Positions 1 to 26,234 of a stretch of 32,000 bases of DNA are shown here, in pieces. The translations under genes were made by a program, and so were the position numbers. Origin of the DNA: a cyanobacterium endosymbiont of Epithemia turgida isolate EtSB Lake Yunoko (GTDB lineage Bacteria; Cyanobacteriota; Cyanobacteriia; Cyanobacteriales; Microcystaceae); contig NZ_AP012549.1 of NCBI RefSeq assembly GCF_000829235.1, positions 2,070,001 through 2,102,000 on the forward strand, written 5' to 3'. Position 1 is the stretch's first letter; each line of letters opens with the position of its first letter. Under the pieces are notes generated by a model. The model saw nothing but the letters and a program-made list of their open reading frames with translations, had not been told where the DNA came from and ran no database searches.

Positions 1-169
1 CTAATGACCCCTCAGGATGATTAAATTCGCTTTCTACTCTGAGAAATTGATCAGTATGGGAATAATCTGGACGTTCGCCGTCGCGCCATTGCACCCCTTC
101 ATCATTAGCAATCACTTTGTCGCGACTTTGTACCCAAAGTGGTAATTTGGCTGAGTCATCGTAATCCAT
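1..169 (-). CDS. 5' part of an unidentified protein-coding gene that runs off the left edge
   Basis: ATG at 169..167 with GGAGAA 5 nt upstream (reverse complement of 170-180). 56 codons stay open to position 1 (MDYDDSAKLPLWVQSRDKVIANDEGVQWRDGERPDYSHTDQFLRVESEFNHPEGSL). Visibly more GC-rich than the adjacent spacer. Too short for the ORF track. Confidence 0.5.
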   Translation of the reverse strand, partial: MDYDDSAKLPLWVQSRDKVIANDEGVQWRDGERPDYSHTDQFLRVESEFNHPEGSL

Positions 170-517
170 TTAACTTCTCCTGTCGTCTAATCGTGGACTA
201 AAAACTCTCCTCTAAGAGGGTATTATAAAGACCATATCGTAATTATTAATTTTAGATTAAGATCTTTGTGTAAAAAAATATGAATTTTTTAACTATTAAA
301 TCGTACATTAAAATGCTATGTTCTGTAGTTTCAATAATTAATTGAGTGGATTACCTAACGAATTGCAACTGATTTCTTCTCAAAATTGAATCTGTAACTA
401 ACCTAACTTACCAAATATATTTTTTTTATCACTATAAGAAGGGTAAATCTGTAAAATAAACACATATAGCTTTTGGTAAATGCGTCAGGTTTAAATTTAT
501 AAAATTCTATGGTTTTC

Positions 518-549
518 TAGTAATGATTCTTTATGAAAAATCATTACTA
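518..549. repeat. Perfect 11-bp inverted repeat (TAGTAATGATT / AATCATTACTA) with 10-nt spacer
   Basis: Read directly: 518-528 pairs with 539-549. No adjacent U-run on either strand, so it is not a canonical terminator. Confidence 0.6.
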
Positions 550-612
550 ACGACTATGAATCGTTACATATAAAATAAAATTTATACATTTGAGTATTTA
601 TTTCTATCGGTT

Positions 613-696
613 ATGCTCAGTATTCAATTTCCTTGGCTTAGAGTCATCATCTTGATTTCCCTACTGGCAGCTTTCGCTATTCTCTATCATGCCTGA
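613..696 (+). CDS. Candidate 27-codon hydrophobic mini-ORF inside repeat copy 1 (MLSIQFPWLRVIILISLLAAFAILYHA)
   Basis: ATG..TGA frame; one hydrophobic helix-length segment; no clear Shine-Dalgarno. The homologous regions of the other two repeat copies are not intact ORFs. Confidence 0.2.
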   Translation: MLSIQFPWLRVIILISLLAAFAILYHA

Positions 697-722
697 TAAA
701 TGGAGAATTTTCGGTTTAATAG

Positions 723-800
723 TAAAATTTAATATTTTTCGCTCTTTCAATTCTGTTAGCTGAATTTTTAGGCAGTCTGATATCTAGCACTTGTTTTTTT
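723..800 (+). repeat. Dispersed intergenic repeat, copy 1 (core AATTCTGTTAGCTGAATTTTTAGGCAG ... T7)
   Basis: Aligns by eye with 14638-14715 and 8351-8438 on the same strand. In the 28-nt core block, 25 of 28 positions are identical to copy 2. Confidence 0.65.
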
Positions 801-906
801 AAAAAATTTTTCTACTTTATACTTACTTTAAGCCCAACTACCTGAATCCTACTTAAATACTCAGGTGAAGTTTCAAACCTTTTGATTATAACAATTAATT
901 AATCTC

Positions 907-942
907 ACAAGCTAAGAACAATACTTAGCTTGTTTTCTGTTT
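907..942 (+). terminator. Intrinsic terminator-like hairpin closing the copy-1 repeat unit
   Basis: 10-bp perfect stem ACAAGCTAAG (907-916) / CTTAGCTTGT (924-933), 7-nt loop, followed by TTTCTGTTT. Confidence 0.55.
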
Positions 943-1221
943 AAGCTAACTAAAACTAACACTGTAATTTAAGATAATGCAATTACCTCCATTCTCTGTA
1001 TCTGGAAATTGGCACTGAAAAGGAACCAGAGATATATGATTAAGTACACCAGGGTCAGAAGACAAGTTATTTTCTGCCTGTTTCTGGGTTACAAAATAAC
1101 AGTTACTGTCAAGGCAATACCCGTCCAGAACAATGTTTTACTTCGAGCAGGACACAGTCCAAAAAGTTTCATTGTTTAAGTCTCCTATTGTTTAACCCAC
1201 TTAGAATATTCCCATTTTTTG

Positions 1222-1263
1222 GTAATAACAGTTACCCCATACTAATTCTATTTGAGATAAAAT
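1222..1263 (+). promoter_or_regulatory. NtcA-type promoter candidate: GTA-N8-TAC, 22-nt gap, TAAAAT
   Basis: GTAATAACAGTTAC at 1222-1235 and TAAAAT at 1258-1263, the spacing of class II NtcA-activated promoters. In AT-rich DNA of this length a few such matches are expected by chance. Confidence 0.3.
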
Positions 1264-1640
1264 CTACTGTATCTGAAATTATGTTGAAGAAATCACGGAA
1301 TATTTATTATTTAACAAAGCTTATCCTCCAGAAGCTAGTTTTATTTCTATAGATAATCTTGGTGTCATGACAAAGTAACAGAAAGGTGGATACACAATTC
1401 AAGTAAAGCTTCTAAATATTTTTCTCCATTTTACCCCAAAAAACTCTAGTCAAGATGCCTATAGATTCAATTTAATGATATTAATTTAGTTAATAAACTA
1501 TGAACTTGTAGATTTAAAATACAATCTAAAAAACCAGATATTTTTAGTAGCCAATAATAAAAGATAGATTTGTAAAGTCTTTAAAGACTACAAAAAACTC
1601 ATAAAAAATGGGTAATAAGTAAATTGTTTATAACTTCAAC

Positions 1641-3980
1641 ATGACTATTTTATTAGACTTAGATCTTTCGGAAAAACTACAACAACTCCGCAATAGTTTG
1701 CGCCCTGGACAAAGACAGTTGGCAGATTGGGAAAGGGGAGAAATGGCCATATCCGCAGTTCCTGGAGCAGGTAAATCTCATAGTTTGGCAGTAGCGGCGA
1801 CTATCATGATCGGACGCTATAAATTACACTCTAAAAAACAACTGATTATCGTGACTTATACCCGTTCTGCGGCAGCTGGCATTAAAGTTAAGATTAAAAG
1901 ATGTTTGAAGGAATTACAATTACCTCAAACAGGTTTTGTGGTACAAACTTTACACAGTTTAGCACTTAATATTGCTAGTCGCAATCCTCAGTTGTCTCAG
2001 CTCAACTTAGACACCGCTACTATTGTTACTCCTACCCCTAGTCATCGTATTATTCGGACTTCCGTAGAAGAGTGGATTAATGCTAACCCTCACCACTATC
2101 AAGTTTTATTACAAGGATTCCAATTTGATGGAGAAGAAACGGAAAAACTACGTCGTCAATCGGTATTACGTACTGAAGTTTTACCTAAACTAGCTCACAT
2201 CATTATCCGTGAAGCTAAAAGTTCAGGACTTTCTCCCCAAGAGGTAGCACGATTAAGTGAATATTCGGCGTATCATTATAATATTTTAGGAATAGGAGCA
2301 GGATTATATCAACAGTATGAAAAAGTGATGCAATCACTCGATTTTATTGATTATGATGACATAACCTTAGCATCTTTACGGGTTTTAGAAAATAAAAATA
2401 TTCGTAATCGCTGGCAACAAGAAACTTTTGCCGTTTTTGAAGATGAAGCTCAAGATTCTAGCCCACTTCAAGAAAAATTAATTAGCTTATTAGCTCAAGA
2501 TTCAAACCATTCTGACAATCCACCCAATTTAATTCGAGTCGGTGATCCTAATCAAGCAATTAATTCTACTTTCACTCCTGCTGATCCTGTTTATTTTAAT
2601 TGGTTTTGTAACCGCTGTAAAGATCAAAACAATTTAGTCATTATGAATCAAGCTGGACGTAGTAGTAAAGTTATTATTGATGCAGCTAACTTCACTCTAA
2701 GTTGGGTTAATAGTCAATGGATAAATGAAACAAAAAATAGTCAAAAAATTGAGTTAAATAAAACTTTTTTAGATTTAACTGAAGAACATATTCCTTTTCG
2801 TCAACAGGATATTCATCCAGTCAAAAAAAATACTCTTCATGCTAACCCTAAATCTGTAGGAAAAGGGTTAGAAATTTATACACCAAAAGATATATATACA
2901 ACCGTTAAATTAATAGAAAAAAGAGTTATCAAACTTTTGAAAAACAACCCTAAACATAGTTCAGCTATTTTAGTCAGAGAAAACCGTCAAAGTCAATTTT
3001 TAGTAAAAAATTTAACTCATTTAAGAAATGATCACGGAATTAAAATATATGAAGTAGGAGAAGCAGAGAGATTCTCTAAAATTCCTGAAGAAATACTTAG
3101 AATATTACAATTCATTGATCGTCCTCATTCCGCAGAATATTTAAAATCAGCCTTAGGAATTTTAGAAAAACGAGATTTAATTGCGTCCCAAGATCTCAAT
3201 ACATTAGTTACCTATCCCGAGAATTTTATCTATCCTAATCCCTTAATTAAGGAACAAAAACAAGAAGTATTACAAGCGCGTCATTACTGTTGTAAACTTT
3301 TACGAGCTAAATTAGAATTACCATTCTATCAACTGATCCCATTTTTAGGAATAACTCTTAAATATACAGGATCAGAATTAGCTACAGTTCAAAAACTTTC
3401 TGACCGTATCAATCGACAAGTTATAGAAAATAATTCCTTAAAAGCAACTATCAAAACCCTTCAAGAAATTGTTAGTGTTGAAGGATTTGAAGCAGTAGAA
3501 GAAGACAATGAGGATCGTTATAACAAAGCTAACCAATTGACAATCATTACTATGCATAAAGCCAAAGGATTAGATTGGGACTATGTCTTTATTCCTTTCC
3601 TACATAAAGATGTTTTACCTGGTAATCCTTGGGTTCCTACTGCGGCTAAATTTCTAGGAGATTTTGCTTTTGCAGAAGTCGCCCGCGCTCAAGTAAGGTC
3701 AGCAGTTTACAGCCAACATATCACCCAAGGATTAGTCCGGGAAATACCTGAACCTAAGAAAGCTTGGGAAGAAGCGAGAAAATTTAAAAAAGCCGAAGAA
3801 TATCGTTTACTTTATGTAGCAATGACAAGGGCAAAACGCCTATTATGGATGTCTGCTGCTCATTTGGGACCCTTTCGTTGGAATGTTTTTCAAGGGAATA
3901 AAACAATCAATCTACAATCCAAAGTTCCTTGTCCTGTTATACCAATTTTGAAGAAACAATTTCCTGAGTCAATTATGTAA
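1641..3980 (+). CDS. UvrD/REP (superfamily 1) type DNA helicase
   Basis: 779-aa ORF. Walker A-like AVPGAGKSH, DExx-like FEDEAQDSS, and C-terminal SF1 motifs ITMHKAKGLDWDYVFIP and YVAMTRAKRLLWMS. TAA stop. Confidence 0.8.
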   Translation: MTILLDLDLSEKLQQLRNSLRPGQRQLADWERGEMAISAVPGAGKSHSLAVAATIMIGRYKLHSKKQLIIVTYTRSAAAGIKVKIKRCLKELQLPQTGFVVQTLHSLALNIASRNPQLSQLNLDTATIVTPTPSHRIIRTSVEEWINANPHHYQVLLQGFQFDGEETEKLRRQSVLRTEVLPKLAHIIIREAKSSGLSPQEVARLSEYSAYHYNILGIGAGLYQQYEKVMQSLDFIDYDDITLASLRVLENKNIRNRWQQETFAVFEDEAQDSSPLQEKLISLLAQDSNHSDNPPNLIRVGDPNQAINSTFTPADPVYFNWFCNRCKDQNNLVIMNQAGRSSKVIIDAANFTLSWVNSQWINETKNSQKIELNKTFLDLTEEHIPFRQQDIHPVKKNTLHANPKSVGKGLEIYTPKDIYTTVKLIEKRVIKLLKNNPKHSSAILVRENRQSQFLVKNLTHLRNDHGIKIYEVGEAERFSKIPEEILRILQFIDRPHSAEYLKSALGILEKRDLIASQDLNTLVTYPENFIYPNPLIKEQKQEVLQARHYCCKLLRAKLELPFYQLIPFLGITLKYTGSELATVQKLSDRINRQVIENNSLKATIKTLQEIVSVEGFEAVEEDNEDRYNKANQLTIITMHKAKGLDWDYVFIPFLHKDVLPGNPWVPTAAKFLGDFAFAEVARAQVRSAVYSQHITQGLVREIPEPKKAWEEARKFKKAEEYRLLYVAMTRAKRLLWMSAAHLGPFRWNVFQGNKTINLQSKVPCPVIPILKKQFPESIM

Positions 3981-4093
3981 ATATTTACCCGGTTTAAATT
4001 ACTTAAATCTATCAACCATTAGGATAATCAAATTGTCTACAGTACTACGCAAATACGTTAAGATATTTTTTCGGAAGCAAAAATCATAAGGAT

Positions 4094-5185
4094 TTATTTA
4101 GGTTCTGAGAGGCTGATCGCTCGTCCTTGAGCCTGCAATTTAGGAATTAAATAAAGATTTTGCAATAAAACTCCTGCACCAGCTACCCAAGGAGGAACAA
4201 TTAATGCCCCCAAAATTCCTAAAATTTGAACTCCACTTAAAACCGCCAATAATTGGTATAAAGGAGAAACATTTACCGAAGATCCCACTAACAGAGGATC
4301 AAGCACATAGGTTTCTACATTTTGAATAAACAAAAATAGTAATAGAACCCAAAGAAACACCCACCCCCCTTGGGCGATTGCTACAATCAAAGCAGGAATT
4401 GAACCCAAAACTGGGCCGACAAAGGGGATTAAATTAGTAATTCCAGCAATAGTTCCTAAACCTAGAGCAAACTCGGAAATTCCTAGGAATCTTAGCCCCA
4501 AACTAATAGCTGACCCCAAAATAAATGAGATTAAAAGCCTCCCTTGAATATAACCTCCCATCCGTTGACTAATGGGAACTACCTGAGCTTCTAAACGTTC
4601 ATTCCAAGGGTAAGGAAATAAATTTACAATGCCCCCAATTAATTTTTTTGACCCTGATAACATATAACCAGAGAGCAAAACCGCTAGAATTACGTTGAAA
4701 ACTCCCCCCAGAATACCTCGTGTCACACCACCGACACCGATGATGAATTTTTGACTGTAGCTTAATGTCCAAGACACCAGAGACTGAATATCTAACAGTT
4801 GATTAATGAAATCGAGAACTTCAGGTTGAGTAAAACCCCGTATAGTAGCCCAGTTTTGGAACTCTATTTCTAAAATATCTAAATATACAGGTAATTTTTG
4901 TAATAACCGTTGGATTTGGGCAATAATTGTTGGACCTAGGATTAAAATAATTCCAGTCATTAAGGTTAATAAGCCTAAATATACAATAATTACAGCTAGC
5001 CAGGGGGTAATCCCTCGTTTTTCTAAATTTTTTACCAAAGGAGCTAGAGTAGAAGCAATAACCACCGCGATCATCAAAATTACCAAAAGATTCCGCAGTT
5101 GCCATAGTATAGTCAATAGCAAACCAGATCCTACTAGTAGTAGTAGGCTAGACGGAGAAATAGAAATTAGTCGCTTAGGTATCAT
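4094..5185 (-). CDS. AI-2E family transporter (PerM/UPF0118-like permease)
   Basis: 363-aa ORF, hydrophobic throughout, with the family-typical segment NLIPFVGPVLGSIPALIVA. Family assignment is from memory of the family, not a search. Confidence 0.75.
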   Translation of the reverse strand: MIPKRLISISPSSLLLLVGSGLLLTILWQLRNLLVILMIAVVIASTLAPLVKNLEKRGITPWLAVIIVYLGLLTLMTGIILILGPTIIAQIQRLLQKLPVYLDILEIEFQNWATIRGFTQPEVLDFINQLLDIQSLVSWTLSYSQKFIIGVGGVTRGILGGVFNVILAVLLSGYMLSGSKKLIGGIVNLFPYPWNERLEAQVVPISQRMGGYIQGRLLISFILGSAISLGLRFLGISEFALGLGTIAGITNLIPFVGPVLGSIPALIVAIAQGGWVFLWVLLLFLFIQNVETYVLDPLLVGSSVNVSPLYQLLAVLSGVQILGILGALIVPPWVAGAGVLLQNLYLIPKLQAQGRAISLSEPK

Positions 5186-6975: not shown

Positions 6976-7673
6976 CCTATTTCTAATTCTTCGCAAATTT
7001 TCTCCCATGCTGCTATTGGATCATTTGCCATTGTAATAGGACGGCCAATAACTAAATAATCTGCCCCCGCTTTTATTGCCTCCGAAGGAGTCATTACCCG
7101 TCGCTGATCTCCATTATAAAACCAACTTGGTCGTATCCCTGGACAAACCAGCAAGAAATCGTTCCCACATACCTGCCGTAGTTGACTGACTTCCCTAGGA
7201 GAACAAACTGCTCCATTTAAACCATACTTTTGGGCAAAAATAGCCATATATAGGACGTATTTGGGTAAATCTAGGGAAACTTTGAGGTCAAAAGCTAACT
7301 CTCGCACATTTAAACTAGTCAGCAAAGTTATGGCTAATAATTGAGGACGAGATGCAGTATTATTAATAGCTTTTGTAGCTGCTTTTAGGGCGGTTTGTCC
7401 TGCTGTGGCATGAAGGGTAAGAAAATCTACCCCATATTCACTGGCACTACGACAAGCTCCCGCTACAGTGTTAGGAATATCGTGGAATTTGAGGTCTAGA
7501 AAAATGCGTTTTTTTCGTTCTTTGAGAATAGTCAGAATACTTGGTCCAGTAGCTGTAAACAATTCTAGTCCTACTTTCCAAAAACTGACTTGAGGCAATT
7601 TATCTAAAAGCGTGATCGCCTCAGTTAAATTGGGAACATCTAGGGGAACAATAACCTGATTAGCCGGTGACAT
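6972..7673 (-). CDS. pyrF: Orotidine 5'-phosphate decarboxylase
   Basis: 233 aa; [11 protein letters not shown] motif and C-terminal LVIGRPI typical of OMP decarboxylase. Confidence 0.9.
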
Positions 7674-8350
7674 TATGTTTAGATGACGTCAATATAATTA
7701 ACATACTAATCTTAAAAGTTGTAAATTGTCATTGACCATTCTCTTTCTCTCCTTAAAATCTAACCTAGATCAGTAGCTCTAAATAAACATAAAAAAACAA
7801 TACATTTTGTGTTTTTATATTCTAAGCACTTATAGTTCAAATATTATTACTTTAATAGATATTTTTTATATAAATTATTTTGCGCAATACTTTAAACTGC
7901 TTTAGCCAAATTATCTCTAAACATCCTTACGTCAATTTTATTTACTTTTGTTTGCTGCCACTCTTCTTATATTATATTTTATCCTAGATTAGGAGGAGGT
8001 TTTTAAAACAATAGATACAACATTTTATCCTCTCATTGTTTCACTTTGACTCTAACTAAAATACTTGTATGCACTGAGTTATTATCAATAATGTTTATTT
8101 TATTCCTTTTTCTTTGCAATTTCTCTTTGGGTTACATACTGATATCATATTCTGTATTATTCTTTATTTTCACTTTTTAAAAAATTCTATAATCTTTTTT
8201 TTAGCATAATTTATATAAAAATAATTATCATAACTATTTTTATATAAGATGGTATTTCTGCCTAATCTACAATTTATTTGACTTTTTTTCTCTTGTATTT
8301 AAACACAAAATTTATAATCTTGTCAGGGAAAAATTTTTAAAATCGCTAGT

Positions 8351-8438
8351 AAACTTTAACAATACTTGTTCTTCTAATTGTATTATCTTAATTTTTAGGC
8401 ACACTGGTATCTAAGTAATGATTGCTTGGTAGTTTTTT
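8351..8438 (+). repeat. Dispersed intergenic repeat, copy 3 (CTAATTGTATTATCTTAATTTTTAGGCAC ... T6)
   Basis: Same-strand alignment with copies 1 and 2 (24 of 29 core positions identical to copy 2). Ends 82 nt upstream of the sqdX start. Confidence 0.6.
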
Positions 8439-8478
8439 CTATTTAACATTTATTTAAACTCACTTACTTGGAGGTACC

Positions 8479-8486
8479 GCGATCGC
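8479..8486. repeat. HIP1 octamer GCGATCGC
   Basis: Exact match. A second exact copy is at 13151-13158, inside the M56 peptidase gene. Confidence 0.9.
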
Positions 8487-8520
8487 CTATATTACTATTT
8501 GTCCCCGAATAGTTAATCTT

Positions 8521-9654
8521 ATGCGAGTTGCCTTATTCACAGAGACCTTTTTACCCAAAATTGACGGAATCGTGACTCGTCTGCGTCATACCGTTGAACA
8601 TTTGCAGCGTAACGGCGATCAAGTATTAGTTTTCTGTCCTGATGGAGGTGTCACTGAACACAAAGGAGCCAAAGTTCATGGAGTCAAAGGAATATCTCTT
8701 CCTCTGTACCCAGAATTAAAATTAGCCATCCCTACCCCCAGTGTCGGTAAAGCAATGGAACGATTTAAACCTAATTTAGTTCATGTGGTAAATCCTGCTG
8801 TTTTAGGATTAGGGGGAATTTATTATGCTAAAACAATGAATATTCCGCTTGTTGCCTCCTATCATACCCATTTACCCCAATATCTACAACATTACGGATT
8901 AGGTTCACTAGAAGGGTTACTCTGGGAATTATTAAAATTAGGGCATAATCAGGCACAATTAAACCTCTGTACCTCAACCGCTATGGTAAATGAATTAGTC
9001 ACCCATGGTATTGAGCGAGTTGACTTATGGCAACGGGGGGTAGATACAGAAATGTTTCAACCTTATTTAAGCTCTCAACAGATGCGATCACGGTTATCAG
9101 AGGGACACCCTGAATATCCCTTATTGTTGTATGTCGGGCGAGTTTCCCCAGAAAAGCAAATTGAGAACATCAAACCTGTTCTGGAAGCTATTCCTGACGC
9201 TCGTTTAGCTGTTGTTGGGGATGGACCTCATCGAGAGGCGTTGAAAGTTCATTTTGCAGGGACTAAGACAAATTTTGTAGGTTATCTACAGGGGTTAGAG
9301 TTAGCTACCGCGTTTGCTTCATCAGATGCCTTTATTTTCCCTTCAAGAACAGAAACCCTAGGTTTAGTCTTATTAGAAGCCATGGCTGCAGGATGTCCAG
9401 TCGTAGCTGTTAATTCTGGGGGAATACCCGATATTGTTACTGATGGGGTTAATGGATATTTATTTGAGCCGGCTGATGCTGATGGGGCTATTGTTGCAAC
9501 TCAACGCTTGTTGGCAGCAAAAGAGGACCGAGAAAAATTACGAGGAAATGCTCGTCTTGAGGCAGAACGTTGGGGTTGGGGAGCGGCTACTCGCCAGTTA
9601 CGCGACTATTATCAAAAGATTCTTTATAAAGAGTCTTTATCAACTGCAGCTTAG
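8521..9654 (+). CDS. sqdX: Sulfoquinovosyl diacylglycerol synthase-like GT4 glycosyltransferase
   Basis: 377 aa. The N-terminus MRVALFTETFLPKIDGIVTRL and LPLYPELKLA match my recollection of cyanobacterial SqdX. GT4 C-terminal region TETLGLVLLEAMAAGCPVV. Confidence 0.75.
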   Translation: MRVALFTETFLPKIDGIVTRLRHTVEHLQRNGDQVLVFCPDGGVTEHKGAKVHGVKGISLPLYPELKLAIPTPSVGKAMERFKPNLVHVVNPAVLGLGGIYYAKTMNIPLVASYHTHLPQYLQHYGLGSLEGLLWELLKLGHNQAQLNLCTSTAMVNELVTHGIERVDLWQRGVDTEMFQPYLSSQQMRSRLSEGHPEYPLLLYVGRVSPEKQIENIKPVLEAIPDARLAVVGDGPHREALKVHFAGTKTNFVGYLQGLELATAFASSDAFIFPSRTETLGLVLLEAMAAGCPVVAVNSGGIPDIVTDGVNGYLFEPADADGAIVATQRLLAAKEDREKLRGNARLEAERWGWGAATRQLRDYYQKILYKESLSTAA

Positions 9655-9682
9655 ATCAACTCTAAATAAATAAGTTCAAGAA

Positions 9683-9706
9683 AGAGACGTTTGAGCAAAC
9701 GTCTCT
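9683..9706. terminator. Hairpin between convergent genes (possible bidirectional terminator)
   Basis: 10-bp perfect stem AGAGACGTTT / AAACGTCTCT with GAGC loop, located between the sqdX stop and the stop of the 9752-10225 gene. No strong U-run. Confidence 0.45.
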
Positions 9707-9751
9707 ACAAGGGTTATTCAACACAAAAAAGATTAAGGTTACAAAAACTAA

Positions 9752-10225
9752 TTAGGACATTCTATCAATAATTTTCATAAGAATATTCATGCCACTTATT
9801 GCCTGCCAACCAAACAAACTAACAATCAGAATATTAAAGGTGATATGGGCATAACGGGCTAATTCATTACCTTTTTGCATGAGAGGGGAAAGGGAAGCAG
9901 AAATAGCGATAATTGTGGTTAGACTCAACCCAACTAATAAATGAGGACCGAAAAATAATTTCTCATTATTAATATATGTAATGGCCATTCCGCCCATGTT
10001 ACCCATTACGATTAGGGACAATAGTAATGATCCTAGTTGGTAATGTCGAGTATTGAAGTATTTTAGTAGTAATTCTTTTTTAAGATCTTTATCGGCTGTC
10101 CGAGTTCGTCGCCATTGTATGCCTAAATATGAGGCATAAATGGTTAATCCGAATAATACCCACATCAGAATGGGATGGCCAAACTGTGACCAGATTTTAA
10201 TAGGTTCTGGAATATCTACTGTCAT
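9752..10225 (-). CDS. DUF4079-like integral membrane protein
   Basis: 157 aa with four hydrophobic segments. Resembles conserved cyanobacterial/plastid DUF4079 proteins (recollection, not searched). Confidence 0.6.
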   Translation of the reverse strand: MTVDIPEPIKIWSQFGHPILMWVLFGLTIYASYLGIQWRRTRTADKDLKKELLLKYFNTRHYQLGSLLLSLIVMGNMGGMAITYINNEKLFFGPHLLVGLSLTTIIAISASLSPLMQKGNELARYAHITFNILIVSLFGWQAISGMNILMKIIDRMS

Positions 10226-10319: not shown

Positions 10320-10360
10320 AATGCTCTCAATCTAAATTAAACACTTAGCTTGAGAGCATT
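10320..10360 (-). terminator. 11-bp hairpin enclosing the stop codon of the 10337-10546 gene
   Basis: AATGCTCTCAA (10320-10330) pairs with TTGAGAGCATT (10350-10360), 19-nt loop. On the minus strand it is followed by the U-rich GCCGUUAGUUGUUCUCGCUUU. Confidence 0.4.
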
Positions 10361-10546
10361 AACTGGGACTTCGTCCCAAGAGTCTACAATTCTGATGTTG
10401 GCGATCCAACCTTCTTGTTTTTGTTGCTCACTTAAGTCTTTAAGCCAAGTTTTGTGGCATTCTTCTGCTGTTTCTTTATCACAACAAGCAATACAAGAAT
10501 AAACAATTCCACAAGGATCGATTTGTTCATTAACCCAAATTATCAT
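10337..10546 (-). CDS. Small Cys-rich hypothetical protein
   Basis: The ORF track start is a TTG at 10552; the ATG at 10546 is more likely (MIIWVNEQIDPCGIVYSCIACCDKETAEECHK...). No family recognised. Confidence 0.45.
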   Translation of the reverse strand: MIIWVNEQIDPCGIVYSCIACCDKETAEECHKTWLKDLSEQQKQEGWIANIRIVDSWDEVPVNALKLSV

Positions 10547-10585
10547 ATTCAAGAATTATCCTAATGTTTATTGATATCTCTAATT

Positions 10586-10644
10586 AATTAGTTTATTACC
10601 CTTGAATAATCAATGAAGTGATGCTCAAGGGTAATAAACTAATT
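10586..10644. repeat. Perfect 20-bp inverted repeat (AATTAGTTTATTACCCTTGA / TCAAGGGTAATAAACTAATT) with 19-nt loop
   Basis: 10586-10605 pairs with 10625-10644 at 20 of 20 positions. The right arm contains the last codons and the stop of the decayed response-regulator reading frame. Confidence 0.7.
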
Positions 10645-11231
10645 TAGCGCGGTTATTGGTTTCAGGTTTTCGAAGTAGGCTGCTAACATATTTTTCTAAT
10701 GTCTTCATTAGATAACCCAGTTGTAAGTAATTGAACTTCTCGTGGAGTAAAGTAGAAATAATTGGCGATAGACTGATTTTTATTCTCTGTTTCTTGAGAG
10801 TAATTGTTTTTTTTTCCAAAAGACTTCCGTTTCAAAAACCCTAATTCAGATTAGATCATTTGAGTTTATTCTACAAGATTTCGGACTACTGCCTTGAGTT
10901 CTTTCATTTCAAAGGGTTTAAGAAGATAAACCTCACACCCCACCTCATATCCTTGAATTCGTTCTCCCGTACTATCTCGTTCGGTCAGAAAAATCACTGG
11001 TAAAAGACGTAATTCTGGTAATCGCCGTAGATGGCGAACTAAAGTATAGCCATCTTTTTGTGGCATTTTAATATCGGATATGAATAAATGAGGACGATAT
11101 GCCCCTAAAAGAGACAAGGTTTCTTGTCTCTTTTAGACAGTTATGACAGAATAACTCTAAAGTTCTAAATAATCTTTGACAGCTAATCGAACTCCTGGAT
11201 CATCATCAGCTATTAAGATCAATAACGGCAT
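10625..11231 (-). pseudogene. Decayed NarL/FixJ-type response regulator (REC + LuxR-type HTH)
   Basis: From ATG 11231 a single frame reads MPLLILIADDDPGVRLAVKDYLEL*SYSVITV*KRQETLSLLGAYRPHLFISDIKMPQKDGY...KPFEMKELKAVVRNLVE*TQMI*SELGF...FTPREVQLLTTGLSNEDIRKIC*. In-frame stops: TAG 11157-11159, TAA 11133-11135, TAA 10866-10868, TAA 10851-10853. The end of the HTH (TLEKYVSSLLRKPETNNRAKLV) is in another frame, which implies a deletion/frameshift. ORF-track entries 10866..11117 and 10625..10819 are fragments of this gene. Confidence 0.7.
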
Positions 11232-13861: not shown

Positions 13862-14637
13862 ATTAGTAAATTTTAGAGATATTTCGTTTTTTTAGTCAAA
13901 TTTTCTAAAATTTAAACTATTGTAAAAAACATAGTTCCATAATTTTAGTTTTTTATTCTGAAAAATTAGCGATCAATAAAAATATAGTTTTAGTTAGATG
14001 AAGTCAATATATTAACAACTTTTTGGGAAACTTTTTGTTATTAAGACTAATAAAATATACAGCATTATTCAGTAATATACATATTTTTTCGCTATTTTTC
14101 TAATCAATTGAGAATTTAATTCTGTATTTTTTTCGTAAAATTTTGGGTTTTTAATAGTAGATATTCTATAAATAAAGAAAAACCTAAGTATTTTAAATAA
14201 AAATCAATTATTTACTAAAAAAATAATATTAAAACTTTAATTTTTTAAAAGAAATTTAATATTATTTAGCTAGATACTACTGTTACTAATTATTAGTGTT
14301 ACTTGTATTAAGTATTTTGAGCTTTTCAAAAAAGAATAAACCTAAAATAAATTTATTTAAATCATAAATTAAAAGACTATAGTATTTAATACTAAAATAA
14401 ATTATTTTTTGCCATAATATTGATTATTATTAAATCAGAAATAACAAAATAATAAGTAAGCATCAACGATAACGCTAAAATATTTTTTAGTATCTACATC
14501 TATTTTATAAGTTTAAAAATAGAAAACTTTCAATTTATCCGCCCAATCTATATATTGAAAAATTTTCTATTTTATTCGATTTAAATATAATATTTGTGCG
14601 CTTATTTTTATCATGAAGTAATTTGTTGGCTCACGGA

Positions 14638-14715
14638 TGAACTTTAATAGTTCTTGTTCCCCTAATTCTGTTAGCCTAATTTTTAGGCAGGACAGTATGT
14701 AGTTACTGCTTTTTT
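14638..14715 (+). repeat. Dispersed intergenic repeat, copy 2 (CTAATTCTGTTAGCCTAATTTTTAGGCAG ... T6)
   Basis: Same-strand alignment with copies 1 and 3. Contains the hairpin GCCTAA-TTT-TTAGGC. Ends 213 nt upstream of the ABC ATPase start. Confidence 0.65.
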
Positions 14716-14928
14716 GAAGACGCAACATATAGTTTAATCAACAGAGATAACGAACTCAGTTCAACCTTATTAATTCACAATCAATTTAGTATATCTCAAT
14801 CAGACCTAATTGTAGATTGACGACAGACCCTAGCAGTCAATGATGAGGTGAGTCATAATAGGGTCAGCGTCCTAGTCTTTTCCACGACAGGTCAGTAAGT
14901 CATTTAACCGTAGTATCGTGTCTAATCA

Positions 14929-18744: not shown

Positions 18745-19270
18745 AGAAGATAAGCCAGATAATACCCCTGAAGCTGAAAAAACAGCTGTTGTTAAAACTG
18801 GTCTAGTTTCCAGTTGGTTAATGGAAAACGGCTTTAAACATGAAGCCCTTGAGCCAGATCATCTAGGTGTAGAACTGATTAAAGTGGAATCAAAATTCTT
18901 AATTCCTCTAGCTACTGCGCTCTATGCCTACGGATTTAATTATCTTCAATGTCAAGGAGCGTTTGATTTAGGGGCAGGGAGAGAGTTAGTAAGTTTCTAT
19001 CATCTCATTAAGGTTGCTGATAATAGTGATCGCCCTGAAGAGATTCGGATTAAAGTTTTTTTACCTAGGGATAATCCCCGTGTTCCTTCAGTTTACTGGA
19101 TCTGGAAAGCCTCAGATTGGCAGGAACGGGAAAGTTATGATATGTATGGCATTATTTATGAAGGACATCCTGACCTGAAACGGATTTTAATGCCTGAAGA
19201 TTGGGTGGGTTGGCCATTACGAAAGGATTACGTTTCCCCAGACTTTTACGAGTTACAAGACGCTTATTAA
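18737..19270 (+). CDS. ndhJ: NDH-1 subunit J
   Basis: ATG at 18737 with AAGGAA upstream; overlaps the ndhK stop (18742-18744) by 8 nt. [20 protein letters not shown] and [10 protein letters not shown] are typical of NdhJ. Confidence 0.9.
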
Positions 19271-19293
19271 AGTCTCATTAACAGATTATTAAT

Positions 19294-19340
19294 CCCTTCT
19301 GTTTTGTTCAGTTTATCTAACAATCAGAGGGGTTATTTGT
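19294..19340 (+). terminator. Possible terminator of the ndhCKJ operon
   Basis: 8-bp stem CCCTTCTG / CAGAGGGG (one G-U pair), a long 23-nt loop, then TTATTTGTG. Confidence 0.35.
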
Positions 19341-20076
19341 GAAAATTTTAACTCTTTATATCAAAATTAATGTTCTTTATTAACTAAATAGATACAAGAA
19401 AAATCTAAAAATAGAGGATAAACTTATGAGCTTTCTCGTGAATAACACCTAACATCTCACTATAAAAGGTATTTATAATGTTTAATTTTCCCAGAACCTG
19501 TCCTATCCTATTCAAAATAACAGCTATTTCAATTTATTTTTAATTTAAACTTATATCTTATTAATGTTTCCATGGTAAATAAAATACATAAAAAAATATT
19601 TAATTTAACAATTAATTCTCAAGGAGTTGAGAGCATTATTGCTGAACTTTAATTCGAATAAAGGCTATAAATTTTCTTTTAGTCTTAGTTCCTTATTTTT
19701 CAGCATTGCAAATACTGTAGAGTAAAGAAAAATACCAATATCAACCAAGTAAAAGTGCCAAAAATAAGCGCTACGAGACAATTTTCTTATTTAAGCCAAT
19801 CATAAACTGAAGGCATTTTTGGGGCCCAATTATCCATTTCAAGTAATTTTTTAATGGTACAATCAAGAAAATTTTCACAAACAATAACTTGTTTAAGATT
19901 TAAGGATAAACCTATGTACCAAGTCATAATTTTACAAAGCCGAAGAAAAGAAAGTAAATTTATCAATAAGAAAAGGTTGTCTTTCTAGACAACCTATAGA
20001 TTTAAACATTTAGTTTTGTAAACTAAAGTAAGTCTTAAAGAAGAAGATTTATTTTCAGTATAATTTTCGTTCACTT

Positions 20077-20446
20077 CTATCGTAATTTTATTAACAGTTG
20101 AGTTGAGGTGCAAACAGCAATATGTTGCTTATCGATTTCTTCATCATTCTCCTTATTGATACTTAAACGTTCACAGAGAATAGTATCTGAGAAAATGGCA
20201 CTTGCCATTATTGCGGTATGAATTTATAATAATGCTTGAGCCACAGATTTAGACATCAGCTGTTGTCCAGGAAAGACAACTCTCTCAAAATACCAATTTG
20301 GAACATTTGCAATCCGAACAACTTGAATTTGACTTGTTGCGTTTACATAGCAACAAAGGATAATTCTCTTTTGTACAGTTGGAAGGTAATTGAGGATCTG
20401 ATCCAGAGTAATAGTAATTGAGGCAATGTGAAATCCAATTTTTCAT
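20077..20446 (-). pseudogene. DUF1830-type gene disrupted by an in-frame TAA and lacking an in-frame ATG
   Basis: The minus-strand frame reads ...RIILCCYVNATSQIQVVRIANVPNWYFERVVFPGQQLMSKSVAQALL*IHTAIMASAIFSDTILCERLSI.... TAA at 20224-20226 falls where homologues have LEIHT. The only nearby ATG (20446) is in a different frame. The NWYFERVVFPGQ block is the DUF1830 signature as I recall it. Confidence 0.6.
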
Positions 20447-20870
20447 TTCTTCTCTACCCTAACATTCAGCTATCTCAACCGACTTTGATTAATATTACAT
20501 TCAATATTTTTATCTTACAAACCAGGACACATTTAAAGAAGTAATGTACTTCCAACTTAGACAAAATTCAAAGGAAATCTTTTTTAATTGTTCGTTAAAA
20601 TTATTAATTTTTGTTAATTTAAATATTTTGTTTAAGATTAGCTAAGTTAAATTCACACTCTTTATTCTTAGATTTAAATTCACCCTTGCTATCTACTCAT
20701 AATCTCGTTAAAGTTAAAGATATATTAGAAAGTTATCACCTCTCTTAAAAAGTTTATTAGATACTGCAGTGATTCTAGGATTGTCTATTATTGCCTAGCC
20801 TAAACTGTTCTTAATCCCTAATTTGCGAGTAAATAACTCTGCCAAACTAATGTTTAGGACGGATTTTACA

Positions 20871-22415
20871 ATGACACAGCGTATTCTCTATGTTCGTCTT
20901 CCCTGTAATCCCATTTTTCCTATTGGCGTTGTCTATTTATCTGATCATGTTCACAAGTTTTTTCCTGAAATTAAGCAAAAAATTCTTGATTTTGGAACAA
21001 TTCCACCATTAGAATTCAAAAAAACTTTATATAATTGTATCGATGAGTTTAAACCAACTTTGCTAGTGTTTTCTTGGCGAGATATCCAAATTTATGCACC
21101 CGTTGGTGGTAGAGCAGGTAATCCCCTACAAAATGCTTTTGAGTTTTATTACGCTAAAAACCCTCTACTTTGTTTACGAGGAGCATTAGGTGGCTTAAAA
21201 GTAACTATGGCTTATTACGGTGAAATATGGCGAAATATAGGAATGATTCAGAGTGGACTTAAACGGGCAAAACAATATCATCCAGAAGTACGTTTAGTTG
21301 TAGGAGGCGGTGCAATCAGTGTGTTTTATGAGCAGTTAAAATCCAATCTTCCCAAGGGAACTATTGTTTCAGTGGGTGAGGGAGAAACTTTACTTCAAAA
21401 ACTGTTGCAAGGGAAAGATTTTTCGCAGGAGCGTTGTTATGTTGTGGGAGAGAATGCTCCCCGTAAAAAATTAATCCATGAACCACCAACACCTATTGAA
21501 AAAACTGCTTGTAATTACCAATATATTCAGAGTATTTGGCCTGAATTTAACTATTATCTTCAAGAAAATGATTTTTACATTGGAGTACAAACTAAGCGAG
21601 GTTGTCCCCATAACTGTTGCTATTGTATCTATACAGTAGTAGAAGGAAAACAAGTTAGAATAAACCCCGTTGATGAAGTAGTCAAGGAAATACGCCAACT
21701 TTATGATCGAGGAATTCGTAATTTCTGGTTTACTGATGCCCAGTTTATTCCTGCTCGTAAATTTATTAAAAATACCGAAGAATTATTACAAGAAATTCTT
21801 AATTCTGGGATGAAAGACATTCATTGGGCAGCTTATATTCGAGCAGACAATTTAACTCCAAAATTGTGCGATTTGATGGCTAAAACAGGGATGAATTATT
21901 TTGAAATTGGTATTACTAGTGGATCACAAAAATTAGTTCGTAAGATGCGAATGGGCTATAAGTTGCGGACAGTTTTACAAAATTGTCGCGATCTTAAAAG
22001 GGCAGGATTTAATAGTATAGTATCAGTTAATTATTCTTTCAATGTAATTGATGAAACCTTTGACACCATTCGAGAAACTATCGCTTATCATCGAGAATTA
22101 GAAAATATTTTTGGAGTTGATAAGGTAGAACCTGCTATTTTCTTTATTGGGTTACAACCCCATACTCATCTCGAAGAATATGCTTTGGAAAATAATATTC
22201 TTAAACCTGGATATAATCCTATGAGTTTGATGCCTTGGACAGCTAAGAAATTACTTTGGAATCCTGAACCTTTGGGATCATTTTTCGGAGAGGTTTGCTT
22301 AAAAGCATGGAAAGAAAATTCTAACAATTTTGGAAAGGAAGTTATGAAAATTCTAGAACAAAAGTTAGGAAAAGCTGATTTAGAAGAGTCCTTAACTGCC
22401 CCTCTTGAAAAGTAG
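20871..22415 (+). CDS. B12-binding-domain radical SAM protein (conserved cyanobacterial type)
   Basis: CX3CX2C cluster motif CPHNCCYC with an N-terminal B12-binding-like domain. The ORF track start is a TTG at 20823; the ATG at 20871 (MTQRILYVRLPCNPIFPIG) is preferred. Confidence 0.8.
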   Translation: MTQRILYVRLPCNPIFPIGVVYLSDHVHKFFPEIKQKILDFGTIPPLEFKKTLYNCIDEFKPTLLVFSWRDIQIYAPVGGRAGNPLQNAFEFYYAKNPLLCLRGALGGLKVTMAYYGEIWRNIGMIQSGLKRAKQYHPEVRLVVGGGAISVFYEQLKSNLPKGTIVSVGEGETLLQKLLQGKDFSQERCYVVGENAPRKKLIHEPPTPIEKTACNYQYIQSIWPEFNYYLQENDFYIGVQTKRGCPHNCCYCIYTVVEGKQVRINPVDEVVKEIRQLYDRGIRNFWFTDAQFIPARKFIKNTEELLQEILNSGMKDIHWAAYIRADNLTPKLCDLMAKTGMNYFEIGITSGSQKLVRKMRMGYKLRTVLQNCRDLKRAGFNSIVSVNYSFNVIDETFDTIRETIAYHRELENIFGVDKVEPAIFFIGLQPHTHLEEYALENNILKPGYNPMSLMPWTAKKLLWNPEPLGSFFGEVCLKAWKENSNNFGKEVMKILEQKLGKADLEESLTAPLEK

Positions 22416-23035
22416 AAAAAATATTTAACAGTAGCTTAGTTTATAACTTAATATAGAGAAAATACTTCAACCTTTACCAATTGTTGTTAACAGTAGCATA
22501 GATTAAATAGCTAAAATCTTATTAAAATCAGTATTATACTTTTTATATAGTGATATATCATTTTTATGAGCTTGTCATCATTTAAATGAATAACTATCTT
22601 TTAGAGTGGATAAACAGACATAGTCTAGGGTAAAAATATTAAAAATTCATATTCTTTTACACTTATCTCAAGATAATTTATTTTTTGATGATTCCCTAAT
22701 TACTAAGATAATTTTCTAGTTATTAGGTTTAATCGGATTATTTTTTGTCATTACTTTGATGATTATATATGATATTTTGAGTATAAATAATTATACTTTT
22801 GTTTCTGTAAAGATAACTGTATTTTGTGAGTTTAAATAAAAACTAGTATGATTCCTTGACTTTATTAGATAAATATTTTTAAAAAAGTCTTTTCTTAAGT
22901 TTAGATATTATTTAATAGGGGTAATAACAAGTAAATCAATAATATTAATTATAGTAAATCTATATTTTAACAAAAATATATAGACATAACATTTAACTAT
23001 TAATAATAGGCTTATCAAAATCTATTAAGCTTGAG

Positions 23036-23560
23036 ATGATATTAGATGTTAAACTCAGTCTAATGAATGAGATTCTAAATTTAGAAAACCTTAGCATTAC
23101 TTATCATCAGATTTAAGATGGGATAGAAATTATTTTATTCGTCAAAAAAATAGATTCAATAGATACAAATTTTGATTATGATTAAATAATCAAAAAACTT
23201 CATCAAAATAATAAATTAACTATCGTATATTTACTGAAGAAAAAGCAAGCGATGTATCTCAATTTTATATAAAAACGAGTTTCTAGAAGAATTAAATTTT
23301 TCAATAAAACCCGAATATAAAATAAAATATTTAAGATAAAAATTGTTTAAAACTTTTTAGAATAGTGATGTCAATAATGTATTTAAAATGGATAAAGTAA
23401 GTGAACAAAAAATAAAAAAATACTCGCAAGTTAGATAAAATATTACAGATTTAAAAACCTCAGATATTAAAAATACTGACATTGAGTGAAATTGCTGTGA
23501 TAATAAATTCAATATCTATACTTTCCTAAAAAATCACATAAATTTCACTCATTATTATTA
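23036..23560 (+). mobile_element. Decayed ISL3-family transposase relic (N-terminal part)
   Basis: One frame reads MILDVKLSLMNEILNLENLSITYHQI*DGIEIILFVKKIDSIDTNFDYD*IIKKLHQNNKLTIVYLLKKKQAMYLNFI*KRVSRRIKFFNKT. This follows the ISL3 N-terminal/zinc-finger layout (LNL..L.I......LHQN....I.DL...G..VYL....RRF.C..C.K.F) with the Cys residues and other positions mutated. A later LTLSEIAV resembles the IDEIA block. Confidence 0.45.
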
Positions 23561-23589
23561 ATTAAATTCTCAATTCCTTCTTTTATATA

Positions 23590-24330
23590 GCTAAAAATAT
23601 TGCAATAATTTAGCATAACTTATTTCATTTTACTAATTGTTTTGAAATACTCATTTACCTAAGGCTCACCTATTAAGGTTCATAATCTGTTTACTGGCTC
23701 TAATTTTTAAGAGTCAGGCAGCAAACATTTGCTGATAACTTATGAATAAATTTTTTTATTTTTGCCATGAAATTAGCTGTCATTATCTTCTATCAATAAG
23801 ACTTTTTTTTAGATATATCTACATCTTTAGCTAAATGTTAATCAATTAAATTTATAAATTTTGTATTTACTCTTAGAATTTAATTCCATAAGATTTGTTT
23901 TATTCGTGGCTTGACATATCCATAAATATATGGGAATTTATAGCCCTAGACTACCATAGCAGTTTATCTTTCTCCAATGTGACTCCAAACTTTTCTTCTG
24001 ATTGTTTTGAATTCTACTCCAGGTTCATCAAAAAATAATATATCTATATTTACTTATGGATATTGTTTTAGGTTGTTAACTTATAAATAGAAATTTTAAA
24101 TAAATTTCCTTTTTTTAAAAGGGTTTCTATTTTGACGTTTTAGTCTCAGACTCTGAGAAGAATATCTAAGCTTTCCTTAAGTGATTCTATTCTTTTTAGG
24201 TTTAAACTTTTTAAACACAATTTGTTTTTATCTAGCGAACTGCTTTCAATTTGATTTATATTTTTTCATATACTGATTTTATAGTGGTTTTTATTTAGTA
24301 AATTCAAGTTAATAAATAAAAAAATCTTAG
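23590..24330 (-). mobile_element. Decayed IS630/Tc1-mariner (DDE_3) transposase relic
   Basis: The minus strand reads FDEPGVEFKTIRRKVWSHIGER*TAMVV*GYKFPYIYGYVKPRIKQIL (fDEsgf....r.W...G..p......Y...YgaV.P.tG pattern). Downstream fragments KSLIDRR, IMNLNR*ALGK*VFQNN and AKLLQYF sit at the expected C-terminal positions. The boundaries are approximate. Confidence 0.45.
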
Positions 24331-24689
24331 TTTCACTAAAAAGTGAAGTCGTACTACATAGATATTTCTGCTAAAGTTATAAAAACTAACAATAAGACTA
24401 ACCAATCAACTCCAACACTAGCAGAATATTTTTAAGTCAGTAATAGTTCAGTAAATCTTCTTCTTAGATATTAGGAGGTAATAAACAGTATAAATCTATT
24501 ACCTTATAGCCGGCTAAAATTTCCTTTCGTTGAAATAAAACAATTTATAGAACAAGATAACGATGTTATTTTGTGAGAACCAAGTATTCACCTGTACAAA
24601 AAATAGGTATTGCAATTAGCATTTCTGTCATATGTCGTTGATAGGTGTCAAACGTCGAGATGGGGATATTTAGATAACACTTGGACAAC

Positions 24690-25115
24690 TTAAACTTTCA
24701 TACCTAGTCTTTATTGACAGAAAAACCTAAGGTTTAGTTAGCTATTATTCGTCAGTGCACCAGAGCAACTAAAGAGAAAAAAGCTTATAGAAAATAATTA
24801 AATATATCGAATAAAAAATATTACGTTAATTGGAGCACTTGCTAAACTGGGTTTTTTCACTTTTTTACTTTTGAACGATGGAAAAAAAAGAAATTTTTTT
24901 TACTAATGAAATAAAAGTACTGATATTGTAATTGTGTCCGGGTGATTATTTTGTTATCAACAATTTACCGGCTCATAAAGTAAAAAAAAGTTAGAGACAT
25001 GATTCAATTTATAGAAATACAAGTCTAATTTTTACCCTCTTATTCTTTAATTTTTAATTCTATTAAAAACTGCTGGTCAAAAATAAAAAAATATTTGATA
25101 ACTATAAAATTATAG
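24690..25115 (+). mobile_element. Decayed IS630-family transposase relic (C-terminal half)
   Basis: Reads YLVFIDRKT... then PGDYFVINNLPAHKVKKS* and, after a frameshift, LPSYSLIFNSIKNCWSKIKKYL. This matches the IS630 hallmark DNLPAHK ... LPPYSPDFNPIENCWSKIK. Confidence 0.55.
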
Positions 25116-25922
25116 AGTTCTCAATAGGGCTGTCAATAATTAGTTTTAATTGGTAAGGTAATTTTTAACGTTGTTTATCAGTTAATAAAAGTATTTTTCC
25201 TCATCTTTATCTTTCTTTTTAATTATTTCCTTTAAACTTTTAATCTATTTTTCTAGCAATTCACTTTATTTCTTTGGAATTTTCTTTCTATTAAGAACAG
25301 TTTATTCTTACAGCAAATGCGTCATTTATGATAGTTAACTTTTGAGATATTCTTGAGGATAAATATTATCTTCTTAATCCTACATGATTTTGCTTTTTTA
25401 GGTGTTTATTATTTAGCTAAAGTTGACTAGAATAAAAAGATGAATAAATTTTTTATAGATCATTTGTATCTAAATTTGGTTTCTCTTAATTATAAGTTGG
25501 TTGTTGCTACTAAATTTAGTATTATTCAAAGAGAATAAAGTTTGTATGTAGTGCTAATTCTTTTGCAGAAAGAAGTAATCATAAGGACCATAGAAAAAAT
25601 GATATTACTAGGTTTCTTAAAAATACACCGATTACAAAAGTAATTTAGAACTATGTCTTGAGGAAGATTAAGACTGGGTATACAGTCCCATTCAAATTAG
25701 CTAACTGATGTAACAACGCTTGTTTATTACAACTGATTACTAATTAACTTAGTAAGAGTCTTTTCTCTATTGATAGGTAGGAATCAATTTTTTATATAAA
25801 TATTTTTTATACATAATTTTCGATAATTATTGAAAGTTAATATATTGGTTAAAACAGATTGCAGACTAAATTAACTTTATTAAAAACCAAATCAAGATAG
25901 AAAAATTACTTTACCGTCTAGC

Positions 25923-25973
25923 TAAGAAACAAGTTTTTTGATAATTTCTACTTTTTAAAAAACTTGTTTCTTA
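25923..25973. repeat. Perfect 17-bp inverted repeat just downstream of the 83-aa gene
   Basis: TAAGAAACAAGTTTTTT (25923-25939) pairs with AAAAAACTTGTTTCTTA (25957-25973), 17-nt loop. It starts 10 nt after the stop codon at 25983-25985. Probable transcript-end hairpin. Confidence 0.55.
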
Positions 25974-25982
25974 AAAAGATGT

Positions 25983-26234
25983 TTAACTTTCAGTCACAAG
26001 TTCAGGGTATAAACCTAATTCTTTAGATAACTGACGGGCAAGAAAAATCAAGAACTTTGCTCCATCTTGATTTCCTTCATGAGCTTGTGCAGTAGCAACT
26101 TCCATTAGTGTTTGAACAAAATCTGCATCAATTAAACTCTTGTTAGCATCTAACACGTCCGGTTCTTGTCCATTGGGACAACCGACTAAATCCTCAATTA
26201 GTTGAAAATATTGCTGGCGACGAGATTCTGTCAT
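25983..26234 (-). CDS. Small helical protein resembling the N-terminal module of cyanobacterial CHAT/TPR proteins
   Basis: 83 aa with AGGAG about 9 nt upstream of the ATG. The pattern QYFQLIEDLVGCPNGQEPDVLDANKSLIDADFVQ matches an N-terminal motif (..LI..LL.CP.G.E..IL.AN..L.D.G..Q) that I recall from many cyanobacterial multidomain proteins. Confidence 0.5.
   Translation of the reverse strand: MTESRRQQYFQLIEDLVGCPNGQEPDVLDANKSLIDADFVQTLMEVATAQAHEGNQDGAKFLIFLARQLSKELGLYPELVTES

Follow-up and report, generated by a model that had tools for sequence, protein, structure and literature searches.

Three related spacer segments in the genome of the Epithemia turgida endosymbiont are very probably decayed IS630-family insertion sequences, one of them lying between the remains of ndhD

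Three gene spacers in a 32,000-nucleotide stretch of the genome of the cyanobacterial endosymbiont of Epithemia turgida (contig NZ_AP012549.1, positions 2,070,001 to 2,102,000; hereafter, the window) carry segments that resemble one another, which raises the question of what kind of element they represent. A first-pass annotation had described them as three same-strand copies of a dispersed repeat with an invariant core, and had found no standard feature class that explained them. The repetition itself was confirmed. A repeat finder delineated an ungapped direct family of 79 nt, the largest direct family in the window, with all members on the plus strand (copy 1, 725-803; copy 3, 8352-8430; copy 2, 14640-14718), and among all self-diagonals of the 32-kb window these three copy pairs ranked highest, with 56 to 57 matches in 79 positions versus 48 for the next best. 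Pairwise identities among the copies were 52, 56, and 56 of 79 positions, and 45 of the 79 columns were invariant; the G+C content of the window is 33%. The impression that copy 1 is richer in G and C, and that copies 2 and 3 have drifted toward A and T, was mistaken: of the 34 variable columns, 14 carry G or C in copy 1, 15 in copy 3, and 19 in copy 2. The genes around the copies encode a UvrD-type helicase, PyrF, a GT4 glycosyltransferase, a BlaI/BlaR pair, MlaF-MlaD, and NdhCKJ; the MlaF-like protein shows 100% identity to its counterpart from the E. turgida endosymbiont. No curated model names the glycosyltransferase beside copy 3, which we take to be SqdX-like and whose gene is called sqdX here.

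For comparison, we used five endosymbiont lineages, namely, that of the window (Et), the R. gibba endosymbiont (Rg; L019), Cyanobacterium sp. uoEpiScrs1 (L022), presumably the E. pelagica endosymbiont and referred to as Ep, and two further lineages, L026 and L029. The core AATTTTTAGGCA matches exactly three times in the window, at 763, 8390, and 14678, and to that extent it is invariant, but the orthologous copies carry GATTTTTAGGCA, AATTCTTAGGCA, AAGTTTTAGAAA, or AACTTTGAGGAA. The further upstream similarity that had been claimed for copies 2 and 3 was upheld: about 110 nt inward of the repeat are common to these two copies and absent from copy 1, with z values of 12, 10.7, and 4.8 in three other lineages and a weak signal in the window itself (z 1.2). 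On the other hand, the downstream similarity claimed between copies 1 and 2 is of borderline significance (z 2.6). Beyond these genomes, a scan of public genome contigs with the pattern TTANCNNAATTTTTAGGCANNNNNNTAT returned 17 chance singletons from unrelated taxa, a scan of public metagenome contigs with AATTNTRTTAKCYNRATTTTTAGGCA gave no match, and a blastn search of plasmids and phages with the repeat consensus gave only noise. With an identity of about 70% within the family, searches for exact patterns miss copies too easily. The candidate fourth copy near 10324-10460 proved to combine coding sequence with a hairpin that is unrelated to the repeat. Segmental triplication of a unit of about 7 kb was rejected, as no paralogous gene relics accompany the copies, and relics of neighboring genes from free-living relatives were not found in the spacers.

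We propose that the three copies are decayed insertion sequences (ISs) of the IS630 family (Tc1/mariner type, with a DDE transposase) with the transposase gene on the minus strand, and we hold this reading to be very probable. Thus, a standard feature class does account for the repeat, contrary to the initial assessment. As a reference, we used the transposase WP_013335068.1 from plasmid NC_014534 of Gloeothece verrucosa PCC 7822, which was verified as an IS630 transposase (NF033545, 165 bits, with matches to DDE_3, HTH_32, HTH_29, and HTH_23). All tblastn matches of this protein at the copy 3 loci were on the minus strand and collinear (Table 1), and remnants of both the N-terminal helix-turn-helix (HTH) region and the C-terminal DDE_3-type region aligned to the reference. 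The DDE-region peptide of the window matched the reference transposase with an E value of 2e-10 in a pairwise BLASTP comparison, and in 7.3 Gb of plasmid sequence it matched five cyanobacterial records only (E 8e-5 to 0.5), two of which have a transposase annotated under the match, both of the IS630 family. For the HTH peptide, the minus-strand translation of copy 3 was taken from less decayed lineages. Among 7.3 Gb of plasmid sequence, this peptide matched best an annotated IS630-family transposase of Gloeothece verrucosa PCC 7822 (52% identity over 48 amino acids, E 0.02), and the next matches were Nostoc IS630/HTH genes. Matches of this peptide to Pfam HTH_23 (E 0.006 to 0.045) and to NCBIfam transpos_IS630 (NF033545, profile positions 2 to 58, E 0.026 to 0.055) were weak and subthreshold, a PDB sequence search with it returned nothing, and the relic peptides by themselves reached no family model at its curated cutoff. 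An intact transposase open reading frame (ORF) was found nowhere, since every copy in every lineage contains stop codons, frameshifts, and large internal deletions.

Copy 3 occupies most of the pyrF-sqdX spacer and would be the IS preserved almost from end to end, with both inverted repeats and the TA duplication. TA dinucleotides flank it at 7818-7819 and 8475-8476; they are present on both sides in Et, L026, and Ep, and the right-side TA is kept in all five lineages. The presence of TA on both sides points to the target duplication of IS630/Tc1-mariner elements. The terminal inverted repeats of copy 3 form arms of 22 nt with 82% complementarity in L026 and are matched over about 30 nt with one 4-nt gap in Ep; in the window, they are badly eroded, and about 10 nt still pair. 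The pattern TTCTAAGCACTTATAGTTCAAAT of the right arm was found once in the window. Both target-site duplications and terminal inverted repeats, for which a search had been suggested at the outset, are thus found at copy 3, and copies 1 and 2 each have one end missing. According to this reading, the block containing AATTTTTAGGCA would be the left end of the IS seen backwards, consisting of the terminal inverted repeat, the 5' untranslated region (5'UTR), and the first 28 or so transposase codons. The core at 8390-8401 translates on the minus strand as ..LPKNSANRI.., and about residues 82 to 220 of the transposase are missing from copy 3.

Table 1. Features assigned at the three repeat loci and transposase matches at the copy 3 loci (coordinates are those of the window unless another locus is named)
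Feature	Position	Strand	Basis
ndhD upstream region and codons 1-29 of dead ndhD, outside the repeat	470-699	plus	Alignment to SU2, tblastn
Copy 1, probable left-end ~150 nt of the IS only, followed by TA at 850-851	700-849	minus	nhmmer E 2e-38
ndhD 3'UTR and intrinsic terminator (hairpin 907-933, T tract), outside the repeat	850-942	plus	SU2 alignment, terminator scan
Copy 3, probable 655-bp internally deleted IS630-family relic	7820-8474	minus	Ends, TA flanks, and inverted repeats mapped in five lineages
Right inverted repeat of copy 3, TTCTAAGCACTTATAGTTCAAAT	7820-7842		Pairs with outer end at ~8445-8474
Transposase C-terminal DDE remnant, residues 267-342 of the reference, broken by stops	7862-8086	minus	tblastn, BLASTP
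Transposase N-terminal helix-turn-helix remnant, ~residues 29-76 (approximate ends)	8185-8326	minus	Orthology to L026 15775-15915 and L029 9974-10186
Repeat of the first-pass annotation in copy 3: left inverted repeat, 5'UTR, and ~28 transposase codons	8327-8474	minus	L029 match (residues 11-81) enters this segment
Copy 2, probable N-terminal part of an IS relic	14527-14720	minus	nhmmer; upstream similarity to copy 3
Transposase residues 11-81	L029 10186-9974	minus	tblastn E 2e-7
Transposase residues 30-76	L026 15915-15775	minus	tblastn E 1e-5
Transposase residues 221-267	L026 15684-15547	minus	tblastn E 0.065
Transposase residues 267-342, DDE C-terminal region	8086-7862	minus	tblastn E 9e-5, 38% identity
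Transposase residues 263-337	L019 9468-9244	minus	tblastn E 1e-3

Copy 2 would keep the N-terminal HTH part of the IS. In the L029 orthologue, this region matches transposase residues 16-51 (E 0.004), and the outer end of copy 2 is intact in L029 and Ep. A weak transposase match at 14075-14170 (E 0.25) tentatively suggests that copy 2 reaches left to about 14075. Copy 1 by itself showed no significant similarity to the transposase and is assigned to the IS solely because of its DNA similarity to copies 2 and 3. Its left boundary was placed at the end of ndhD homology, at 699-716, and its right boundary by comparison of IS ends; the TA that follows it is kept in three of the five lineages. Besides, a short tandem duplication near the outer end of copy 1, in which TATACTYATTTAAGTT occurs twice, was observed in L026 (9150-9210) and L029 (3470-3500), showing that small-scale turnover within the relic continues.

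An origin from a mobile element had been among the initial candidates, and this was right in kind. The form suggested was a miniature element (MITE), that is, copy 1 and perhaps the whole family would be a nonautonomous derivative some 150 nt long rather than a truncated IS, which would agree with the shortness and sharp boundaries of copy 1 and with its having no coding remnant past about 28 codons. As in MITEs and short interspersed bacterial repeats, the units are short, AT rich, intergenic, multicopy, and transposon derived. However, none of 11 copies of the 150-nt unit showed terminal inverted repeats belonging to the unit itself, which carries one IS end only and lacks paired ends; two of the three copies (2 and 3) run on into transposase sequence; and a single deletion that also took ndhD accounts for the truncation of copy 1. 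We therefore consider a MITE very unlikely and regard the copies as truncated or internally deleted autonomous IS630-family elements.

The surroundings of copy 1 consist of the remains of a dead ndhD gene. In the free-living strain SU2 (GCA_002110465.1), which is named as the closest known relative in PMC11131595, the gene order is SnoaL-ndhD-uvrD, and ndhD is intact and encodes 527 amino acids (NF009212, 906 bits). Positions 470-716 of the window aligned to 7530-7777 of the SU2 locus (L025) with a score of 158 (shuffles, 37 ± 5), and positions 841-1517 aligned to 9241-9880, covering the 3' end, the terminator, and the spacer to uvrD, with a score of 355 (shuffles, 43 ± 5). The repeat fills the exact gap between the ndhD 5' and 3' remains. 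Thus, the unit of 613-945 that had been proposed for copy 1 does not hold, because 470-699 and 850-1517 are orthologous to the SU2 ndhD region and are unrepeated. The ORF and the terminator ascribed to copy 1 do exist (613-696, and 907-933 with a T tract), but both belong to ndhD and not to the repeat; the ORF product shares 13 of 23 residues with the NdhD N terminus in the tblastn alignment (MLSIQFPWLRVIILISLLAAFAI versus MVNFEFPWLTAIILTPLLASLAI).

These flanks bear directly on the idea that the repeat represents a gene family for small RNAs or small proteins that is transcribed on the plus strand, with the terminator at 907-942 as its end. A canonical terminator after copy 1 and a hydrophobic 27-codon ORF before it would suit such genes, but the ORF is the ndhD stump and the terminator is that of ndhD itself, with no counterpart found at copies 2 and 3. 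The E. pelagica endosymbiont has lost the start codon of the ORF, and the 7:3 ratio of nonsynonymous to synonymous changes in the ORF versus the R. gibba endosymbiont fits neutral drift. As for a structured RNA, RNAalifold predicted no consensus pairs for the plus strand and 4 pairs, all trivial, for the minus strand, and a search with Rfam found no family at the gathering score in the whole window and only noise at E ≤ 10 in the region from 400 to 1700. Such a gene family is accordingly highly improbable.

The presence of ndhD sequence on both sides of copy 1 might also suggest that the repeat consists of interior remains of ndhD-type (NuoM family) paralogues, with the core as a membrane-helix motif, all the more because three different stretches of ndhD resemble copy 1 by eye. 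By-eye likeness in AT-rich sequence is, as a warning, prone to false patterns. Indeed, the mappings to codons ~44-108, ~90-103, and ~376-425 did not exceed chance, ranking 16 to 3826 among 2802 to 4566 control windows (about 92 kb of free-living sequence), and the upstream part shared by copies 2 and 3 has no similarity to ndhD (rank 1783 of 4566). Plus-strand translations of the repeat match no Pfam family, the coding remnant being on the minus strand, and the IS630 assignment covers the same sequence with real statistics. An origin from the ndhD interior is therefore hardly credible, less so than any other alternative considered here. The related idea that copies 2 and 3 are duplicates of a collapsed ndhD pseudogene was rejected, their upstream parts being without similarity to ndhD.

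Returning to the IS630 reading, the present arrangement at copy 1 could most simply have arisen in two steps. The SU2 site that matches the TA of copy 1 reads TAA-TA-TTACTTACC and lies directly after the ndhD stop codon. The IS would first have landed on a TA at or just after this stop codon, and one later deletion would then have taken ndhD from about codon 30 to its end, together with most of the IS. What remained after such a deletion would be the start of ndhD, 150 nt of the IS, and the 3'UTR of ndhD including the terminator.

Two further observations concern this neighborhood and its sequence. A 40-nt segment downstream of copy 2 (14760-14799) is similar to the ndhD 3'UTR, both that of SU2 and that at the copy 1 locus; the Et sequence ranked top of 3654 control windows, the Rg orthologue did not, and in Ep and L029 the counterpart lies about 370 nt from the IS end. 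This likeness is either due to chance or a second small fragment. Between SnoaL and uvrD, an ORF of 27 amino acids on the minus strand (1089-1172; MKLFGLCPARSKTLFWTGIALTVTVIL) is preceded by AGGAG and is nearly identical in free-living SU2. It lies within the best-conserved block of the spacer (1051-1310; 0.8 to 0.95 identity to the E. pelagica endosymbiont) and has no NCBIfam match, and it is probably a real, unannotated gene for a small membrane protein.

Gene order is conserved across the endosymbiont lineages at the matching region, and an nhmmer profile of the repeat placed all three copies at orthologous positions in each of the five lineages. The same profile found no copy in about 92 kb of matching loci from three free-living cyanobacteria, SU2, Rippkaea PCC 8801, and Crocosphaera XPORK-15E. 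The copies thus predate the radiation of the endosymbionts, and their identical positions in the five lineages indicate that the IS was active before these lineages split. Reconstructed ancestral copies are 71 to 76% identical to one another, compared with 56 to 66% today, which is consistent with neutral decay of elements that inserted not long before the radiation. The insertions would thus have occurred before the diatom endosymbionts diverged, and the copies would have been decaying ever since. An intact progenitor IS was not recovered from a close free-living relative.

The relics are presumably functionless now, although it may be asked whether some of them have been taken into use. The original proposal of a portable promoter cassette was not supported, because the -10-like box TATCTA is destroyed in several orthologues, with changes at critical positions in copy 1 of L026 and copy 3 of Rg and L026, and because copy 2 has lost its core in L026 and Ep. 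A more restricted possibility is co-option of the IS ends: the outer end of copy 3 would form part of the sqdX promoter, e.g., its -35 element, copy 2 would provide an upstream promoter for mlaF-mlaD, and the repeat would now be a regulatory module common to these genes. Hybrid promoters formed with IS sequences are well known. The distance from the end of copy 3 to the sqdX start codon is 46 nt, the last 20 to 40 nt or so of this copy are better conserved than its interior (windows in 8434-8493 have 0.78 to 0.97 identity versus 0.40 to 0.80 further in), and copies 2 and 3 both face plus-strand genes. However, a sigma-70 scan called no promoter within the repeat, the -10-like sequence is replaced by CATTTA, CACCTA, or CGTCTA in some orthologues, and copy 2 has lost not only its core in the two lineages mentioned but also its outer end in Et and Rg. 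Furthermore, free-living relatives keep only short proximal blocks at mlaF and sqdX, and the endosymbionts keep the same blocks, so that each gene retains an ancestral proximal block. The repeat is conserved to the same degree as its immediate flanks; compared with the average of the poorly alignable spacer, the identity of its orthologues is 0.69 versus 0.59 in Ep and 0.75 versus 0.62 in L026, with more of the repeat deleted. Co-option therefore seems unlikely, though less so than the other alternatives. If true, it would mean that an extinct transposon rewired the expression of membrane-lipid genes in a nascent nitrogen-fixing organelle.

The proximal blocks are of some interest in themselves. 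About 90 nt just upstream of mlaF (14817-14907) are approximately 88% identical to SU2 and recognizable in Rippkaea PCC 8801, the spacer around them being unalignable; the block has no significant fold (z -0.5) and is probably the ancestral promoter or leader of mlaF. In the 45 nt that precede the start codon of the sqdX-like gene (8478-8520; TATATTACTATT..CGAATA), conservation extends to Crocosphaera XPORK-15E, and the TA beside the IS end of copy 3 is immediately adjoined by a HIP1 site (GCGATCGC).

Taken as IS630-family relics, the copies share with the Gloeothece element on NC_014534 the two transposase regions, HTH at the N terminus and DDE_3 at the C terminus, whose remnants lie collinearly on the copy 3 minus strand, as well as terminal inverted repeats and TA at both ends of copy 3. 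ISY100 of Synechocystis is a further example of this family. Unlike the Gloeothece IS, which measures 1488 bp with 36-bp inverted repeats, the relics are dead, with stop codons and internal deletions; copy 3 is reduced to 655 bp, one copy is cut to 150 nt, and identity to the reference transposase is 38 to 53%. They are decayed members of a well-known family and ordinary genome fossils, not a new regulatory or RNA element.

In earlier reports, 18 degraded IS elements are counted in the spheroid body of E. turgida (EtSB) and 22 in RgSB, with none transposable in EtSB (Nakayama and Inagaki 2017, PMC5638926), and spheroid-body genomes are described as holding "only fragments of transposases" (Abresch et al. 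2024, PMC11131595). Recent papers hold that mobile elements were lost early from these genomes, and they stress the lack of mobile elements and an unusual genome stability (PMC11131595; bioRxiv 10.64898/2026.03.19.712447). The relics described here resemble the published degraded EtSB elements in coming from the same organism and in their fragmented or severely truncated transposase ORFs, and they differ in the link between an IS relic and the loss of ndhD, which is not mentioned in the available text of PMC5638926 or PMC11131595. In a lineage said to lose its mobile elements early, copy 1 may be a rare preserved case of an IS insertion followed by a gene-removing deletion, and a relic at the site of ndhD loss would be a concrete trace of transposon-associated gene loss. 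The finding carries little weight in itself and is of modest value for studies of genome reduction in diatom diazoplasts; it also removes a false lead, in that a supposed repeat, small RNA, or promoter family is resolved into transposon debris and the stumps of a dead ndhD.

Other parts of the window also show decay. A GerE-type response regulator gene on the minus strand (10560-11120) is reduced in the window to an ORF of 83 amino acids (10866-11117) and is intact at the Rg, Ep, L026, and L029 loci (e.g., L019 12071-12745), which suggests a pseudogene confined to the E. turgida endosymbiont. Two stretches, 19270-20823 and 22415-25983, contain no ORF of at least 80 amino acids, in agreement with the low density of coding sequence and the degraded fragments of genes reported for spheroid-body genomes (bioRxiv 10.64898/2026.03.19.712447), and these stretches may hide further IS or gene relics.
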